A stretch of DNA of 64,000 nt, from positions 2,500,473 to 2,564,472 of the forward strand of contig OZ271840.1 of NCBI GenBank assembly GCA_965601735.1, in the 5' to 3' direction. The stretch comes from Alphaproteobacteria bacterium (GTDB taxonomy: Bacteria; Pseudomonadota; Alphaproteobacteria; JBBDQX01). This document shows, one piece after another, positions 33,449 through 43,168 of this stretch (the stretch's first letter is position 1; each line of letters starts with the position of its first letter). Position numbers and translations under genes: made by a program. The notes under the pieces were generated by a model. That model ran no database searches and was not told where the DNA came from. It worked only from the letters and a program-made list of their open reading frames with translations.

Positions 33449-33484
33449 GCCGCTGACAAAGGAATGGGCGCGGGAGGCGCTGCC

Positions 33485-34444
33485 ATGACGCGGGTCGCCG
33501 TTCTGGACGACTACCTGAAGATCGCGCCGGAGGTCGGTGGCTGGGACAGGCTTCCTGACGGCTGCAGCGTTGATTTCTTCCACGATCATCTCACCGAAGA
33601 GGCCGACATCGTCGAACGGTGCCTGCCCTATGACGCCATCGTCATGACCCGCGAGCGGACTCCGTTCCCCCGCAGCCTGATCGAGAAGCTGCCGAACCTC
33701 AAACTGCTGATCACGGTAAGCGCCCGCAACCGGTCGATCGACTTCGCGGCCTGCGCGGACCGCAACATCACCGTCTGCCACACCCTGCAGGGCAATGGCC
33801 CGACGTCGGAGCACACCTGGGCGCTGATCCTGGCGCTGTTCAAGAATCTGCCGGTCGAGGACCGGGCGATGCGCGACGGCGAATGGGGCATCGCGGTTGG
33901 CCAGGAAGTGCTGGGCAAGACCATCGGTCTGATTGGGCTGGGCAAGCTCGGCAAGAAGGTGGCCAAGGTCGCCCAGGCCATGGAGATGGACGTCATTGCC
34001 TGGAGCCCCAACCTCACCGACGAGCGCGCCGCCGAGGTGGGGGTGCGCCGGGTCGACAAGGACGACCTGTTCGCCGAGTCCGATGTGGTCTCGGTGCACA
34101 TCATCTCCAGCGACCGCACCCGTGGCCTGGTGGGGGCGCGGGAACTCGGCCTGATGAAGCCGACCGCCTTTCTGGTGAACACGTCGCGCGGACCGATTGT
34201 CGAGGAGGCGGCGCTGATCGACGCGCTGCGCAACGGCACCATCGCGGGGGCGGGGCTCGATGTCTACGACACCGAACCGCTGCCGCTGGACCATCCGCTG
34301 CGCGACATGCCCAACACCGTGGTGACGCCCCACACCGCCGGCTTCACCCGCGAGACCTTCACCCTTTGGTATGGCGGCGCCTGCGAGGATGTCCTCGCCT
34401 GGCTCGACGGCAAGCCGATCCGGCTGCTCGCCCCGCCCGACTGA
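33485..34444 (+). CDS. D-isomer-specific 2-hydroxyacid dehydrogenase (NAD-binding), tandem paralog 1
   Basis: GLIGLGKLG Rossmann motif and a catalytic R/E/H region. GGGAGG SD. Start MTRVAVLDDY. Confidence 0.85.
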   Translation: MTRVAVLDDYLKIAPEVGGWDRLPDGCSVDFFHDHLTEEADIVERCLPYDAIVMTRERTPFPRSLIEKLPNLKLLITVSARNRSIDFAACADRNITVCHTLQGNGPTSEHTWALILALFKNLPVEDRAMRDGEWGIAVGQEVLGKTIGLIGLGKLGKKVAKVAQAMEMDVIAWSPNLTDERAAEVGVRRVDKDDLFAESDVVSVHIISSDRTRGLVGARELGLMKPTAFLVNTSRGPIVEEAALIDALRNGTIAGAGLDVYDTEPLPLDHPLRDMPNTVVTPHTAGFTRETFTLWYGGACEDVLAWLDGKPIRLLAPPD

Positions 34445-34460
34445 TTGCCGGGAGAGATTC

Positions 34461-35426
34461 ATGACCAAGATCGCGATCCTCGACGACTACCAGAATGTCG
34501 CCCTGTCCATGGCCGACTGGGACGCGCTGCCGGACGGCTGTTCGGTGCAGGCGTTCCACGACAACATCACCGACCGGGAGGCGCTGGTCGCCCGGCTTGA
34601 GCCGTTCGACGTGCTGGTGATCATGCGCGAGCGTACCCGGTTCCCCGGCGATCTGATCGCGCGGCTGCCGAACCTCAAGCTGCTGATCACGTCCGGCGGC
34701 CGCAACGCCGCCATCGATCAGGCGGCCTGCGCCGAGCGCGGCATCGCGGTGGCCGGCACCGGCGGCTTTGGCGCGCCGACCTCGGAGCTCGCCTGGGCGC
34801 TGATCCTCGCCATGTTCAAGCGGGTGCCCGAGGAGGATCGCGCCACCCGCGCGGGGCACTGGAGCCTCGGCCTGACCCGGACGCTGGAAGGCAAGACGCT
34901 GGGCGTGCTGGGCCTCGGCAAGCTGGGGGCGCGGCTGGCCAAGGTCGGCCAGGCGTTCGAGATGGACGTCATCGCTTGGAGCCAGAACCTCACCGACGAG
35001 CGCGCCGCCGAGGTGGGCGTGCGCCGGGTGGAGAAGGACGCCCTGTTCGCCGAGTCCGACGTGATCAGCATCCATCTGGTGCTGAGCGAACGCTCCCGCG
35101 GCCTGGTGGGCGCGCGCGAGCTGGGCCTGATGAAGCCGACAGCCAGCATCGTGAACACGTCGCGCGGCCCGATCATCGACGAGGCCGCCCTGATCGATGC
35201 CCTGCGCAACGGCACCATCGGCGGCGCCGGGCTGGATGTATTCGACGTCGAGCCATTGCCCGCCGACCATGCGTTCCGTAGCCTGCCGAACACGGTGATC
35301 ACGCCGCATCTCGGCTACGGCACCGAGGAGAACTACCGCATCTATTTCGGTGAGGCGGTGGAGAACATCCGCAACTGGCTTGAGGGCAAGCCGATCCAGG
35401 CCATCGCACCGCCGCGCCAGCCCTGA
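34461..35426 (+). CDS. D-isomer-specific 2-hydroxyacid dehydrogenase, tandem paralog 2
   Basis: Start MTKIAILDDY at 34461 with a GGGAGAG SD. About 70-80% identical to paralog 1, with long identical peptide runs. Confidence 0.85.
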   Translation: MTKIAILDDYQNVALSMADWDALPDGCSVQAFHDNITDREALVARLEPFDVLVIMRERTRFPGDLIARLPNLKLLITSGGRNAAIDQAACAERGIAVAGTGGFGAPTSELAWALILAMFKRVPEEDRATRAGHWSLGLTRTLEGKTLGVLGLGKLGARLAKVGQAFEMDVIAWSQNLTDERAAEVGVRRVEKDALFAESDVISIHLVLSERSRGLVGARELGLMKPTASIVNTSRGPIIDEAALIDALRNGTIGGAGLDVFDVEPLPADHAFRSLPNTVITPHLGYGTEENYRIYFGEAVENIRNWLEGKPIQAIAPPRQP

Positions 35427-35982: not shown

Positions 35983-36222
35983 CTAGGGCAGGGTGCGGTT
36001 GTGGGTCGAGATCAGCTTCAGCGATCCATAGTCCTTCCGCTTGAAGCGGTCCAGCGCCAGCGCGACGATCTGCGCCTTCAGGTCCGCATCGAAGTCGGGG
36101 TCATCCTCCACCAGGATGATGTCGGTCATGATGACAAGGGAGAACTTCACCTCCTGCTTGTCGTTCATGGTGTGGGTCTCATAGACCGTCAGGATGTGGT
36201 CGGACAGGTCCGGCGTGGTCAT
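35983..36222 (-). CDS. Small hypothetical protein (79 aa)
   Basis: The C-terminal in-frame portion of ORF 35983..36723, starting MTTPDLSDHILTVYETH. Its ATG overlaps the stop of the TPR-GT9 gene (ATGA), indicating translational coupling. Confidence 0.5.
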   Translation of the reverse strand: MTTPDLSDHILTVYETHTMNDKQEVKFSLVIMTDIILVEDDPDFDADLKAQIVALALDRFKRKDYGSLKLISTHNRTLP

Positions 36223-37685
36223 GGTCGGGGCTCCTCTCGGGCGAGCGCCGTGGCGATGGCGGCGAAGACGCCGTCCCAGTCGCCGGGGGTCGGCTGCCGG
36301 AACAGGCGCATGGTGGGGTACCAGGGGCTGTCGTCCCGGCCGCGCATCCAGCGCCAGTCGGGCATATGGGGGAGGGCAAGCCAGACAGGCCGCCCGGTCG
36401 CGCCGGCCACATGGGCCAGCGCCGTATCGGACGTGATGACGAGGTCGAGGGATTGCAAGACCGCGGCGGTGTCGGTGAACGCGCCACCGTCCTCGTCGAG
36501 CTGAGGCCCCAGGTCGGTCAGGCTGACATCCGCCGGCAGGCCGGTGAACTGCTGTCGGCCCGGCCCCTTCTGCAGGCTGATCAGGGAAACATCCGGCAGC
36601 CGGGCCAGCGGCGTGAAGGCGGCCAGCGGGATCGAGCGCCGGGCATCGCCCGCATAGCCCGGGTCCCCTTGCCAGCCGATGCCCAGCTTGAGGCCGGGCA
36701 GGGGCGCCAGCGCCTTGCGCCACTTCTCGACCCGCGCCGGGTCCGGATGCACATAGGGCACCTGCGCCGGCACCGTCTCCGGTGTGGTGCCGAGGATATG
36801 CGGCAGGCTCATCAGATGCGCCCAGGCGTCGAAGGCCGGAGGGTCCTCGCGCTCGCTGACAATGGCGTCGATGCCGTCGGCGTTCGACAGCAGCTCGACC
36901 AGCCGCGGCCGGCAGCGCAGCACGACCTGCGCACCCGACGCCTTTGCTACCGCGGCGTAGCGGGAAAATTGCAGCACGTCGCCCAGACCCTGCTCACCTT
37001 GCAGCAGGAGGGTCTTGCCCGGCAGTGGTCGGCCATCCCAGACCGGCCCGTCCAGGTCACGCCGGGCGTGGCGGAAATGTGGGGTATGCCAGCGCGCCTC
37101 ATAGGCGGCCCAGCCGTTGGCGAAGTCTCCGTCGAGCAGCAGCGCAAGGGCCAAGTTGTAGCGCGCCCCCGCGTTGCCGGGATCGGCGGCCAGAACCTGC
37201 TTGTAGGTTTCGACGGCAGCAGCGGTATCGCCGCTGTCCTTCAGCGCGATACCCAGGTTGACCGCGCATTCCGGGTCGCGCTGCCCGGCTGCCAGCGACC
37301 GGCGGTAGAGCGCGATGGCCTCGTCGAGCCGCCAGTCCTGCTGCCGGGCGAGGCCGAGGTTGTAGAGCGCGTTGGGATGATGCGGGAATAACGCCAGCGC
37401 GCGTTCCAGCGCGGCCGCCGCCTGTTTTGTCGATCCGGCGTCCAGCAGCGCCGCGCCAAGATTGGCATGGGCCTCGGGATCGTTGGGACTGAGGGACGCG
37501 GCCTCGGTGAAGGCGGCAACCGCGTCGTCGCGCCGGTTCAGCGCAGCCAGGGCGTAGCCCAGCAGGTTGAGCAGGTCCGGACGGCGGCCCGTCCCAGCGT
37601 CAAGTGCCGCCTCGCATCGGGCGAGGGCCTCGTCGGCCGCCCCGCGCGCGAGGCAGGCGCTGATCGCGGCCAGGTCTGCGGCCAC
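36219..37685 (-). CDS. TPR-repeat protein with a C-terminal glycosyltransferase family 9 (heptosyltransferase-like) domain
   Basis: About 6 TPR motifs at the N-terminus. C-terminal GxGDxLxxxR, ITSDTALAHVAGA and PVWLAL motifs of the GT9 fold. GTG start 2 nt after the upstream stop. Confidence 0.75.
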   Translation of the reverse strand: MAADLAAISACLARGAADEALARCEAALDAGTGRRPDLLNLLGYALAALNRRDDAVAAFTEAASLSPNDPEAHANLGAALLDAGSTKQAAAALERALALFPHHPNALYNLGLARQQDWRLDEAIALYRRSLAAGQRDPECAVNLGIALKDSGDTAAAVETYKQVLAADPGNAGARYNLALALLLDGDFANGWAAYEARWHTPHFRHARRDLDGPVWDGRPLPGKTLLLQGEQGLGDVLQFSRYAAVAKASGAQVVLRCRPRLVELLSNADGIDAIVSEREDPPAFDAWAHLMSLPHILGTTPETVPAQVPYVHPDPARVEKWRKALAPLPGLKLGIGWQGDPGYAGDARRSIPLAAFTPLARLPDVSLISLQKGPGRQQFTGLPADVSLTDLGPQLDEDGGAFTDTAAVLQSLDLVITSDTALAHVAGATGRPVWLALPHMPDWRWMRGRDDSPWYPTMRLFRQPTPGDWDGVFAAIATALAREEPRP

Positions 37686-37687
37686 CC

Positions 37688-38248
37688 TCAGCTCTGCGGC
37701 AGTTCTGGCATGTCCACATAGCCGCGGGCGATGGCGCGGGTTAGGGCATCGAAGGCGTGTACGGCCTCTTCATACATGTGACGGCGCTCGGAGACTTCCC
37801 GGACGCGCGCGTCGTCCGGCGCCTGCCCATCCTGCAGGTGCAGGCGCAGCAGCGCCGATTCCAGGTAACGCGCACGCAGTTCCGCAACGCTGGCGGCCAG
37901 CTTCAGCACCTTCTCACGGTCCAACTCCGGAATATGCTGCGATACCGTACTGCGGTTGATCTCCCTGATCTCCTCCGCCAGCCCCTCCACGAAGTCAGCA
38001 TGGACGAGCGGTGCGTCGAATTCCCCTTGCTTGTTTGCCATTGAGTTTTCCCCGGCTGTGAGAGGGTGCCGTAACTTTATCAGCAGCGCCGCGACATTGG
38101 TGGCCAACTGCTGCACCTTCTCGCGGTCGAGTTCAGGAATTTGCTGCGATCCCGTACTGCGGTTGATCTGCCTGATCTCCTCCGCGAGCCCTTCGACAAA
38201 GTCGGCATGGACGAGGGGTGCTTCTAGTTCCCCTTGCTTGTTTGCCAT
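37688..38248 (-). CDS. Small hypothetical protein with an in-frame tandemly duplicated N-terminal module (186-aa fused form; 117-aa form if initiated at the second ATG, 38041)
   Basis: Two copies of MANKQGE[L/F][E/D]APLVHADFVEGLAEEIR.INRST.SQ.IPELDREKV lie 207 nt apart (ATGs at 38248 and 38041). The RBS-proximal sequence is duplicated with them, and the second copy continues into the unique C-terminus. The 389-aa six-frame ORF upstream of 38248 is an Arg/Pro-rich antisense artefact. Confidence 0.55.
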   Translation of the reverse strand: MANKQGELEAPLVHADFVEGLAEEIRQINRSTGSQQIPELDREKVQQLATNVAALLIKLRHPLTAGENSMANKQGEFDAPLVHADFVEGLAEEIREINRSTVSQHIPELDREKVLKLAASVAELRARYLESALLRLHLQDGQAPDDARVREVSERRHMYEEAVHAFDALTRAIARGYVDMPELPQS

Positions 38249-38291
38249 TGAGGGTTTCCCGGCTGTGTGAGGTTGCGGCAATCTTATCACG
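37880..38291. repeat. Two-copy direct tandem repeat, 207-bp unit (about 88% identity), covering the 5' UTR/RBS and first about 54 codons of the small gene
   Basis: Copy 1 is about 38087-38291 and copy 2 about 37880-38084. The period is exactly 207 bp (69 codons), so the duplication is in frame. Confidence 0.8.
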
Positions 38292-38310
38292 GGCAGGGGG
38301 GATTGAGAGC

Positions 38311-39690
38311 ATGACTGAGACCTACATCCGCGACCGTCTGGCCGAGCGGGTCCTGTCGATTGGTTTTGACGACCTGCCGCCAGAGACGGTGCATCAGGCC
38401 AAGCGCATGGTGCTGGACAGCATGGCCTGCTTGCTTGGCGGCTTTGCAAGTCGGCCGGCGGAGATCGTGCGCGAGACCGGCCGCATCCTCGGCGGTGCGC
38501 CTTTGGCGCGGGTCTACGGCACCGCCGAGGCCACCTCGCCGACCCAGGCGACACTGGCCAACGGTACGGCGATCCGGTTCCTCGACTGGAACGATTACTA
38601 TTTCCGCCGCGATCCCTCCCACGCCAGCGGCAACCTTGCCGCAGCCTTGGCGGTGGCAGAGAGCGAGGGGCTTGGTGGACGGGAGATGCTGCTTGGCCTG
38701 GTCGTCGGGTACGAGGTGCAACTCCGTCTGGTCGATCATGCCGGGGTGCCGAACCTGTGGGAGCGCGGCTGGCACCACGCCACGAATATGGCTTTCTCCA
38801 GCGCCGCCTTGTCGGCGCACCTGATGGGCCTGGATGCCGGGGCGACCGCCAACGCACTGGCCATCGCCGGCAGCCACAACAACACGCTGACCCAGTCCCA
38901 GCGCGGCAATATCCCGATGATGAAGGCGACCGCCGAAGCCGCCATTGCCCGCGGCGGTGTAGAGGCAGCGCTGCTGGCCCGCGCCGGGCTGAGCGGCCCA
39001 GAGGAGGTGTTCGAGGGTAAGTTCGGTTGGATCCCGGTCGTTGCGGGCGAGGTCGATATCGACGGCCTGCTGGCGCCCATAGGCGACCGGTTCCGCATCA
39101 TGGATACCTGCATCAAACCGTATGCCGCGGAAATGATGACCCAGTCATCGATCCAGGCGGCCATCGACGTGGTGTCGGAGAGCGGCCTCGACGTCGGCGC
39201 AATCGACCATGTCGAAGCGCGGTTTCACGACTACGCCTTTAAGAAGCCCTCCTGGGACCCGAAGAAGCTCCACCCCAAGGACAAGGAAACGGCGGACCAT
39301 AGTTTCCCCTACTGCATTGCCGTGGCGATGATCGACGGCGATTGCGGGCCGGAGCAGTACACCGATGCGCGGCTTGCAGATCCGCAGGTCCGCGCATTGA
39401 TGGACAAGGTGGAATTGACCGTGGATCCGGCGCTGACGGCGTTGTTGCCGGACAGGTTCGGCACGGCGGTGAAGGTGACGATGGCGGATGGTTCCGTCTA
39501 CGAGGCGGTGTGCGATTGCCCGCCTGGCCACCCGGACAATCCGCTGAGCGACGCGGCACTGGAGGACAAATTCCGCCGCCTCGCGGAAGGGTTGCTGAGC
39601 CCGGCGCAAACCGATGCAGCCATCGCCGCGACCTGGTCGCTGGACGGTTTAGACAGCATGTCAGAGTACGCAGATCTGTTTCTAATCTGA
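38311..39690 (+). CDS. MmgE/PrpD family protein, paralog 2
   Basis: Start MTETYIRDRL at 38311 (ORF from 38218). PrpD-fold sequence. Confidence 0.8.
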   Translation: MTETYIRDRLAERVLSIGFDDLPPETVHQAKRMVLDSMACLLGGFASRPAEIVRETGRILGGAPLARVYGTAEATSPTQATLANGTAIRFLDWNDYYFRRDPSHASGNLAAALAVAESEGLGGREMLLGLVVGYEVQLRLVDHAGVPNLWERGWHHATNMAFSSAALSAHLMGLDAGATANALAIAGSHNNTLTQSQRGNIPMMKATAEAAIARGGVEAALLARAGLSGPEEVFEGKFGWIPVVAGEVDIDGLLAPIGDRFRIMDTCIKPYAAEMMTQSSIQAAIDVVSESGLDVGAIDHVEARFHDYAFKKPSWDPKKLHPKDKETADHSFPYCIAVAMIDGDCGPEQYTDARLADPQVRALMDKVELTVDPALTALLPDRFGTAVKVTMADGSVYEAVCDCPPGHPDNPLSDAALEDKFRRLAEGLLSPAQTDAAIAATWSLDGLDSMSEYADLFLI

Positions 39691-41527: not shown

Positions 41528-41563
41528 CCGCGGCACTTGATAATATTCTAGAGAGGTTAGCCC

Positions 41564-43168
41564 GTGGCTTTTGACGCATTCGCCTTCCAGGAAGCGCTGG
41601 CACTCGTCTTCCGGCCGGAAACCCTGATGTGGCTGGCCTTCGGTGTCACGGTCGGCACCGGCGTCGGGGCCATGCCCGGTCTCACGACATCGACCGGCCT
41701 CGCGCTGTTCCTGCCGCTCACCTTCAACATGGACACGGCCAACGCGCTGGGTCTGCTAATCGGTCTCTACAAGGGCTCGATCTGGGGCGGCTCGATCTCG
41801 GCGATCAGTTTCGCCACACCAGGCGCGCCGGATTCAGCAGCGACAGTCTATGACGGCTATAAGCTCATGCTGCGGGGCAAGGGCAAGAAAGCCATCCTTG
41901 TCGCCTTGTATTCGTCTGTGACCGCGGACTTCCTCAGCGACGTCGTCACCATCATCGCAGCCCCGCTGCTGGCCATCGTCGCGCTGAAGTTCGGTCCGAC
42001 AGAAAAGTTCTGGGTCATGGTGCTGGCCATCGCGCTGCTGGGCGCCTTGAGCGGCGCGCATTTGGCCAAGGGCATGTTATCGGCGGCGATAGGTCTGTTT
42101 ATCGGCACCATCGGCACCGACCCGGTCGCCTTCGTGGAGCGCATGACATTCGGCGTCTGGTGGCTCAATGAGGGCGTCAAGCTGGTGCCGCTGATCATCG
42201 GCATCTTCGCCTTCTCGCGGATGCTTGAGGAATCGCTAAAGCTCTTCATCGAGCGCAAAAGCGAGGTGAACCTCAGCGAACGCATCTCCGCGATGTTCGG
42301 CAAGGGTAGTGAGGGCCTGACTTTCCGGGAGTTCCTGTCGTGCTGGCGGGAAATGGCCATCGGCTTCTTCGCCGGGACCATCATCGGTGCGCTGCCGGGG
42401 CTGGGCGCTACGGTTGCGGCCTTTGTCTCCTACAGCCTGGTAAAGCAGATCTTCCCCGAGAAGAAGATCGGCACCGGCCGGATCGAAGGCATCGCGGCGG
42501 CGGAAGCGGGCAACAACGCCACTGTCGGCCCGACCCTGATCCCGCTACTGGCCTTCGGCATTCCGGGAAGTTCGTCGGCGGCGCTGATCGGTGCGGCGCT
42601 GACCCTGCAGGGCGCGGACCCGAACCCGCGCTTCTTCTCGCTCTACCCGGAAATTGTCTACTCGTTGTTCATGATCCTGATTATCGGCAACGCGATGAAC
42701 CTGTTCATCGGCCGGGTGTTTGGGCTGATGTATGCCCGGATCGGGCAGCTGCCGCGTGAGCTGCTGATACCGCTGGTCATGATGATGGCGATCATCGGCT
42801 CCTTCGTCTTCCGGGGCGAGTTCACCGACGTCTATGTCATGCTGTTCTTCGGGTTTGTCGGCTTCTTCCTGCGCATCTTCGGCATTCCCGAGGCGCCGCT
42901 GGTGGTGACCTACATCATCACGCCGCTGCTGGAAGCCAACATCCGCCGGGCGCTGTTGATCCAGGACGGCAGCATGTTCCAGGCCCTGTTCCACAGCAAG
43001 CTGGCCATCGGGCTCGCCGTCACCGCGGCGGTGCTGACGTACTTCTCCGCCAAGCTGCAGGTGATGGAGCGCATCGCCCATGCGGCGCAGGATGACGCCA
43101 AGGCCGAGCGGAACCAGCAAGCTTCCGGTGGCGACGGCGACGGCAACCAGAAACCGCCGACAGCCTAG
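41564..43168 (+). CDS. tctA: Tripartite tricarboxylate transporter permease TctA
   Basis: Large multi-TM TctA family protein. GTG start with an AGAGAGG SD. Confidence 0.8.
   Translation: MAFDAFAFQEALALVFRPETLMWLAFGVTVGTGVGAMPGLTTSTGLALFLPLTFNMDTANALGLLIGLYKGSIWGGSISAISFATPGAPDSAATVYDGYKLMLRGKGKKAILVALYSSVTADFLSDVVTIIAAPLLAIVALKFGPTEKFWVMVLAIALLGALSGAHLAKGMLSAAIGLFIGTIGTDPVAFVERMTFGVWWLNEGVKLVPLIIGIFAFSRMLEESLKLFIERKSEVNLSERISAMFGKGSEGLTFREFLSCWREMAIGFFAGTIIGALPGLGATVAAFVSYSLVKQIFPEKKIGTGRIEGIAAAEAGNNATVGPTLIPLLAFGIPGSSSAALIGAALTLQGADPNPRFFSLYPEIVYSLFMILIIGNAMNLFIGRVFGLMYARIGQLPRELLIPLVMMMAIIGSFVFRGEFTDVYVMLFFGFVGFFLRIFGIPEAPLVVTYIITPLLEANIRRALLIQDGSMFQALFHSKLAIGLAVTAAVLTYFSAKLQVMERIAHAAQDDAKAERNQQASGGDGDGNQKPPTA

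Follow-up and report, generated by a model that had tools for sequence, protein, structure and literature searches.

An old in-frame tandem duplication places a small alphaproteobacterial gene and its start signals inside a longer open reading frame

Introduction

Genes can grow by repetition. In gene elongation, of which hisA and hisF are the familiar examples, a whole gene is duplicated in tandem, and the first stop codon is then lost so that the copies become one (PMC7284861). Genes can also yield more than one product from a single frame: bacterial N-terminal proteoforms arising by in-frame internal initiation have been catalogued with retapamulin Ribo-seq (bioRxiv 10.1101/520783) and by riboproteogenomics (PMC11005335), and long and short forms of AerR are found in a purple bacterium (PMC6199135). 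Within the limited coverage of our literature search, we found no described bacterial duplication that spans a ribosome binding site (RBS) and is fused in frame.

The locus presented here resembles both of these systems and departs from each. It lies in a stretch of 64,000 nt of an alphaproteobacterial genome (hereafter the window), and came to attention through an earlier note, made from the sequence, which described a 207-bp tandem duplication over the start of a small gene. As in gene elongation, the duplication is head-to-tail within one locus, its copies have diverged, and a single open reading frame (ORF) contains two paralogous modules. Unlike in the classical cases, what was duplicated is not a whole gene but part of its 5' end (47% of the gene and 41 nt in front of it); there was no stop codon to lose, the copied piece is an incomplete folding unit, and a 5' untranslated region (UTR) has been turned into the code for a linker. 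The event still counts as gene elongation through tandem duplication, and its mechanism is known, unsurprising and not new. As in the known proteoform systems, two in-frame starts, each with a Shine-Dalgarno sequence, could give products that share a C-terminus; whereas in those systems both starts have been measured, their use here is deduced from sequence, and the internal start is the ancestral one, made internal by the duplication rather than newly evolved. Set against the unnamed family of proteins of about 110 aa to which the gene belongs, the core of the long product is alike from end to end, while the duplicated N-terminal module is absent from the other listed members and loci. In what follows we describe the repeat, its age and the selection acting on it, and weigh what the duplication may do.

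A 207-nt repeat with readable breakpoints

Two copies of a 207-nt unit lie head to tail on the minus strand, with no spacer between them and no indels (Table 1); the upstream, promoter-proximal one is called copy A and the downstream one copy B. A repeat search of the window returned this one family, at a spacing of 207 and with the boundaries given in the table, and TRF reported an array at 37891-38276 (period 207, 1.9 copies, 85% matches, 0% indels, score 590), the sole one within the 64 kb to score at least 80. The tandem duplication of the earlier note, and the 207-nt periodicity by which it was to be checked, are both present; its dimensions need adjusting. By direct count the copies are identical at 172 of 207 positions (83%), where about 88% had been given, so that the divergence is 17% and not about 12%, and the stretch of 5' UTR in each copy measures 41 nt instead of about 45 bp. 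Each copy does carry the start of the gene, as had been said, with a coding part of 55 codons plus 1 nt rather than about 54 codons, which amounts to 55 of the 117 codons of the gene (the first 47%) in addition to the 41 nt of upstream sequence. Split at the ATG, identity between the copies is 32/41 ahead of it and 140/166 over the codons. The region is, as the note had also remarked, lower in GC than its surroundings, with 0.575-0.595 over 37900-38400 against 0.66-0.76 in the flanks.

Table 1. Positions in the window of the duplicated copies, the open reading frames and motifs that they contain, and the adjacent genes
Feature	Position	Strand	Description
Long ORF, 186 aa + stop	37688..38248	-	Uninterrupted from ATG 38248 to TGA 37690-37688; public annotation P0001
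Nested ancestral ORF, 117 aa + stop	37688..38041	-	Colinear with every homolog; predicted three helices
Copy A (upstream, promoter-proximal)	38083..38289	-	TGATAAGATT, 5' UTR, Shine-Dalgarno GGGAA, ATG 38248, 55 codons
Copy B (downstream)	37876..38082	-	TGATAAAGTT, former 5' UTR, Shine-Dalgarno GGGGA, ATG 38041, 55 codons running into the remainder of the gene
Motif TGATAAGATT	38280..38289	-	41 nt before ATG 38248; its TG opens the repeat unit exactly
Motif TGATAAAGTT	38073..38082	-	41 nt upstream of ATG 38041; inside the long ORF, encodes L-I-K-L
TPR/GT9-like gene, 488 aa	36219..37685	-	GTG start 2 nt past the stop of the small gene; pairing kept in orthologous loci
MmgE/PrpD-family gene, divergent	38311..39690	+	ATG 62 nt from ATG 38248, 21 nt from the left edge of the repeat

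Such similarity lies far from the chance level, for which the median best 207-nt self-match over lags of 30-999 in the whole window is 85 matches. Over the same lags, 172 of 207 is reached elsewhere only once, at a lag of 976 (33958-34164 against 34934-35140, plus strand), by two tandem paralogous D-2-hydroxyacid dehydrogenase genes at about 33480-34444 and 34460-35426. This pair is also present at the related loci L001 and L005; it thus goes back to an old duplication of a whole gene and has no connection with the 207-nt repeat.

Immediately outside the unit the sequence reads CTGCCCG before and TG after the left breakpoint, and CTGC before and GTG after the right one, so that a short imperfect direct repeat (CTGCCCGTG and CTGCGTG) brackets the event; this similarity suggests slippage or microhomology-mediated joining, either of which would fit it. 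That the repeat might instead be an artefact of assembly, or two separate genes misread as one, we regard as excluded. Duplications made by assembly come out identical, whereas these copies differ at 35 of 207 positions; the intervening stop codon that the earlier note had allowed for does not occur in frame between the copies; and an independent public annotation, made on a 3.27-Mb contig, also has the 186-aa ORF.

A gene nested within its own extension

Because 207 nt are 69 codons, the duplication turned the locus into a nested gene. A single ORF crosses the junction with no stop, the length of the repeat being a multiple of three, and its layout is that of a duplicated helix 1 and half of helix 2, followed by a linker and the complete 117-aa core. 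The earlier note had it that copy A reads through the second UTR into the full gene, and this is what the frame shows: the linker, IKLRHPLTAGENS, corresponds to the former 5' UTR of copy B. The two ATGs that it named, 38248 and 38041, do open ORFs of 186 and 117 aa respectively, and the public record annotates only the longer. Their products would begin MANKQGELEAP in the long form and MANKQGEFDAP in the short, and the long form would be marked by the peptide LLIKLRHPLTAGENSMANK across the junction of copies A and B, in a stretch that contains AALLIKLRHPLTAGENSMANK. On the opposite strand, an antisense shadow ORF of 104 aa (37956-38270, plus) spans both copies; no homolog supports it, and the GC-rich coding sequence probably gives rise to it incidentally.

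We propose that a single tandem duplication in the lineage of the window's genome copied a 207-bp segment reaching from the TG of a conserved upstream motif, through the 5' UTR, Shine-Dalgarno sequence and ATG, to codon 55 of the 117-aa gene. ATG 38248 would now open a 186-aa protein made of three parts, namely a diverging copy of helix 1 and of the front half of helix 2, a flexible linker and an intact three-helix core, whilst ATG 38041, with its own Shine-Dalgarno sequence and possibly its own promoter (TGATAAAGT), would continue to give the ancestral 117-aa protein. Our favoured reading, which we hold to be rather probable, is that translation yields the long form, on which purifying selection acts in relaxed form, and that the cell probably makes both proteoforms. 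With the ancestral start intact inside the long ORF, the 117-aa form is probably still produced, and we think that it is this core that carries the function.

Relatives hold a single copy

At syntenic loci, the nearest relatives of the small protein are P0002 (85% identity, 117 aa) and P0003 (62%, 119 aa), the latter from an Acetobacterales metagenome-assembled genome. In the protein comparison that gave P0001, the window's own and sole entry of 186 aa, every other homolog is 113-123 aa long; over all comparisons, homologs are 103-127 aa long with a single match each. The comparison with orthologous loci that the earlier note had called for gives one copy: no tandem repeat was found in the syntenic orthologs L001 and L005. 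Likewise, none of 61 genome loci holds two domain hits in one ORF, and no metagenome contig matched the pattern of the duplication junction. Longer ORFs do occur among the 61 loci, as upstream extensions of the open frame in which the profile match sits at the C-terminal end. Since no second copy is present in the other listed members or the examined loci, the duplication is, as far as public data go, specific to this lineage.

Age, asymmetric divergence and selection

Besides being confined to one lineage in public data, the duplication is old. By the Nei-Gojobori method, dS is 0.57 between copies A and B and 0.97 between copy B and L001 over the same codons, which places the event at about 0.6 of the time since the split from L001 and bears out the earlier note's view that it was not very recent. 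By now the copies are too diverged for efficient homologous loss.

The two copies have not diverged at the same pace. When changes were polarised by parsimony with L001 and L005 as outgroups, which are themselves near synonymous saturation (dS 1.0-1.6), and with two changes ambiguous, the copy A lineage received 18-20 changes (3/4/11 by codon position for the 18 counted), including 8-10 replacements, and the copy B lineage 6-8 (1/0/5 for the 6 counted), including 2-3 replacements by path counting. Copy A has evolved about three times faster than copy B (p 0.009-0.02 for the difference in rate). This excess is what copy A would be expected to show as a decaying leftover, with function residing only in the 117-aa protein from ATG 38041 and the long protein a tolerated by-product. 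Several features of copy A point in the same direction: its replacements include V33G, in a nearly invariant hydrophobic column of the family; against a family profile from which the window was left out it scores 37.7 bits to the 45.5 of copy B, a loss of 8 bits; and its GC3 has come down to 0.71 from 0.82 in the inferred ancestor. The open frame is weak evidence by itself, because the neutral chance that no stop would arise is about 0.4-0.6 and a duplication is in frame with a prior of 1/3, values with which an unselected copy A sits comfortably.

Other features argue against decay. With 10 synonymous and 8-10 nonsynonymous changes, the copy A lineage has a dN/dS of 0.20-0.25, below the neutral expectation in a test made on only some 20 changes; the neutral probability of so few nonsynonymous changes is 0.002-0.07 for kappa of 1-4 and a GC-to-AT bias of 1-4, the value of 0.07 being reached when strong GC-to-AT bias is combined with high transition bias. 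Neither copy has acquired an indel over a dS of 0.57. ATG 38248 and its Shine-Dalgarno sequence are intact and occupy the ancestral start position relative to the conserved motif, and on a transcript begun at the ancestral promoter this ATG is the first that ribosomes would reach. Codon-position bias alone cannot identify the strand that is read, because the shadow ORF shares its third codon positions with the gene. The earlier note's statement that the reading frame has been maintained thus draws strength from the low dN/dS and the lack of indels, and little from the openness of the frame. We consider decay of copy A unlikely, though with a chance that deserves to be taken seriously; the pattern of substitutions suggests instead that copy A is translated under relaxed constraint.

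A widespread family without a name and its predicted three-helix fold

The 117-aa core is a member of an unnamed proteobacterial family of proteins of about 110 aa. It aligns with the members over its full length, scores 127 bits against a family profile from which the window sequence was left out, and carries the family invariants F17, R26, N29, R30, P38, R56, Y59, EE91-92 and GYV107-109; copy A retains F17, R26, N29, R30, P38 and A49. When the small protein was searched against Pfam, NCBIfam and PHROGs, E-values were at best 0.003-0.1, short of the curated cut-offs in every case and at the level of noise. A profile made from the first seven homologs and searched against 1.84 billion proteins matched 270 representative clusters, 150 of them at E <= 1e-10 and typically 105-125 aa in length; in an indexed collection the same profile found 277 clusters, all unnamed or hypothetical and none with a Pfam domain. 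The 150 listed representatives have one profile match each, save for an 88-aa entry whose match is split, and the few longer entries in the family match in their C-terminal part only. Matches in genomes fall in Rhodospirillales, Hyphomicrobiales, Thalassospiraceae and Lysobacterales (Silanimonas, Pseudomarimonas). A three-helix family of about 110 aa is, then, widespread in Alpha- and Gammaproteobacteria with neither a curated model nor a name.

AlphaFold2 run on a deep alignment predicts with confidence that the core forms three long helices, which in the numbering of the long form span 79-105, 111-136 and 146-174 (pLDDT 82-97), a model with which one from a shallow alignment agrees, as does the earlier note's impression of an all-alpha protein. 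For the copy A module it predicts an N-terminal helical hairpin (helices at 13-31 and 42-60) with a pLDDT of 47-73, and then some 18 residues of coil, the former leader among them. Low confidence of this kind would be expected of a copy left to decay, and would fit a floppy or a non-functional appendage equally well. The repeat unit stops in the middle of helix 2, so that the duplicated piece is not a complete folding unit, which likewise counts towards its being a leftover. Foldseek against the PDB, and a profile search of PDB sequences, returned nothing significant, and the fold thus yields no functional lead.

Two start sites with intact signals

Both ATGs are preceded by a G-rich Shine-Dalgarno sequence at a spacing of 7 nt. 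Against the canonical anti-Shine-Dalgarno sequence, the duplex energy is -4.3 kcal/mol for copy A and -5.7 kcal/mol for copy B, with -4.3 and -4.1 for orthologs, and the energy needed to open the mRNA around the start is similar in the two (9.0 and 10.4 kcal/mol). The stronger Shine-Dalgarno sequence of copy B stems from a substitution of G for A at -9 in the lineage of that copy, by which the signal at ATG 38041 equals or exceeds those at ATG 38248 and at the starts of orthologs. Were copy A a mere leftover, an internal start at least as strong as the upstream one is what would be looked for. In our favoured reading, a transcript from the ancestral promoter position would present ATG 38248 first, and the coding-like substitutions suggest that it is used. 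As far as can be read from the sequence, both starts keep intact signals and nothing appears to disable either.

A conserved motif in the leader

A motif, TGATAAnnTT, is invariant at -41 from the ATG in copy A, copy B and the loci L001, L002 and L005, in upstream sequences that have otherwise diverged and align without gaps. It has 3 matches in the window against 0.13 expected. TGATAAGAT, TGATAAAGT, TGATAAACT and TGATAATAT each match TGnTAnnnT, and the positions that this pattern fixes are the very ones that do not vary among them. An extended -10 promoter is defined by a TG placed one base before a -10 hexamer with T1, A2 and T6, and can act without a -35 element; we take TGATAAnnTT to read like such an element (TGnTAnnnT), putatively, and the motif of copy B may on this reading serve as an internal promoter. 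A sigma-70 scan that requires a -35 element and a terminator scan, both over 37400-38600, found nothing; with no canonical sigma-70 promoter, it is the reading of the motif that carries the idea of an internal promoter. Upstream of 57 distant family members TGATAA is absent, which speaks against a regulatory site common to the whole family. Read as a possible Fur box, TGATAAT has a poor second half-site. An Rfam search of the whole window found no RNA family.

The third exact match in the window, TGATAATATT at 41538-41547 (plus), lies in the 36-nt spacer between tctB and tctA, 17 nt before the GTG of tctA at 41564, and has the same letters as the motif that precedes the L005 copy of the small gene. 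No such motif was found at the equivalent place in L001 and L005, and the match could be a coincidence or a shared regulatory site.

The position of the motif raises the possibility that the duplication was kept for its regulatory content, with promoter or operator and RBS doubled and expression of the operon raised or rewired, and that the extended protein is incidental. The unit begins exactly at the TG of TGATAAnnTT and both copies retain the motif; the lineage of L001 and L002 has independently come to have two motifs upstream of the gene, with a second GTGATAAnnTT in the spacer 144 nt upstream of the conserved one; the downstream TPR/GT9-like and 79-aa genes are translationally coupled to the small gene; and the change at -9 strengthened the Shine-Dalgarno sequence on the copy B lineage. 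Set against these are the putative nature of the motif's function, the lack of a canonical promoter in the scanned interval, and the coding-like substitution pattern of copy A, which regulation would leave unexplained. As the reason for retention we hold this improbable, giving it a slim chance. It is compatible with our favoured reading and not exclusive of it, and the views that copy A is translated, that it is decaying and that its regulatory content was selected overlap.

Operon context

The small gene heads a conserved order: it is followed by the TPR/GT9-like gene (about 490-517 aa), a 79-aa gene, a 4HBT_2 thioesterase and two 2-hydroxyacid dehydrogenases, with tctCBA upstream and divergent, and in the window and L005/L006 an MmgE/PrpD gene too. 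In L001 (3274-3653) and L002 (683-1061) there is no MmgE/PrpD gene between tctC and the small gene, and a spacer of about 380 nt takes its place. The GTG of the TPR/GT9-like gene so closely follows the stop of the small gene (Table 1), and its own stop so overlaps the ATG of the 79-aa gene (ATGA), that the three genes are translationally coupled. The 488-aa protein has N-terminal TPR repeats and, in its C-terminal part, a marginal match to glycosyltransferase family 9 (GT9) over residues 404-434 that with 21.6 bits (E 1.6e-4) stays just under the cut-off of 22. The 79-aa ORF (35983-36222, minus; GC about 0.58) is without a Pfam or NCBIfam match, and matches in L001, L002 and L005 have E-values of 1e-41 to 1e-43; it is likely to be a real small protein and to belong to this coupled operon.

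Only in an Acetobacterales-like subclade does the small gene form an operon with the TPR/GT9-like gene. Across the 61 genome loci no constant neighbour of the wider family was found, so that genomic context gives no general clue to function; a histidine-kinase-like gene stands upstream in 15 of the 61, mostly in Lysobacterales. Tight coupling to the TPR/GT9-like gene is the sole contextual clue, and suggests a role as its partner or adaptor.

Conclusions

The locus shows gene elongation in nature part-way through, at a point where the ancestral state is preserved in syntenic relatives, the breakpoints can still be read and the event can be dated. It offers a convenient test case for how partial duplications with ends that disregard the boundaries of a fold come to be tolerated, for whether doubling a start leads to long and short proteoforms that are stable, and for how annotation should treat nested loci.

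One may go further and suppose that the 41-nt leader does double duty, as the code for a linker and as an internal extended -10 promoter and RBS, and that the long form has a distinct role of its own; we hold this doubtful, and distinctly so. If true, one duplication would have given rise to a nested gene with two promoters and two starts, and the role of the long form might be, for example, to modulate how the core associates with itself or how it interacts with the TPR protein to which it is coupled. The family of about 110 aa, for its part, is a candidate for a new domain-of-unknown-function entry.
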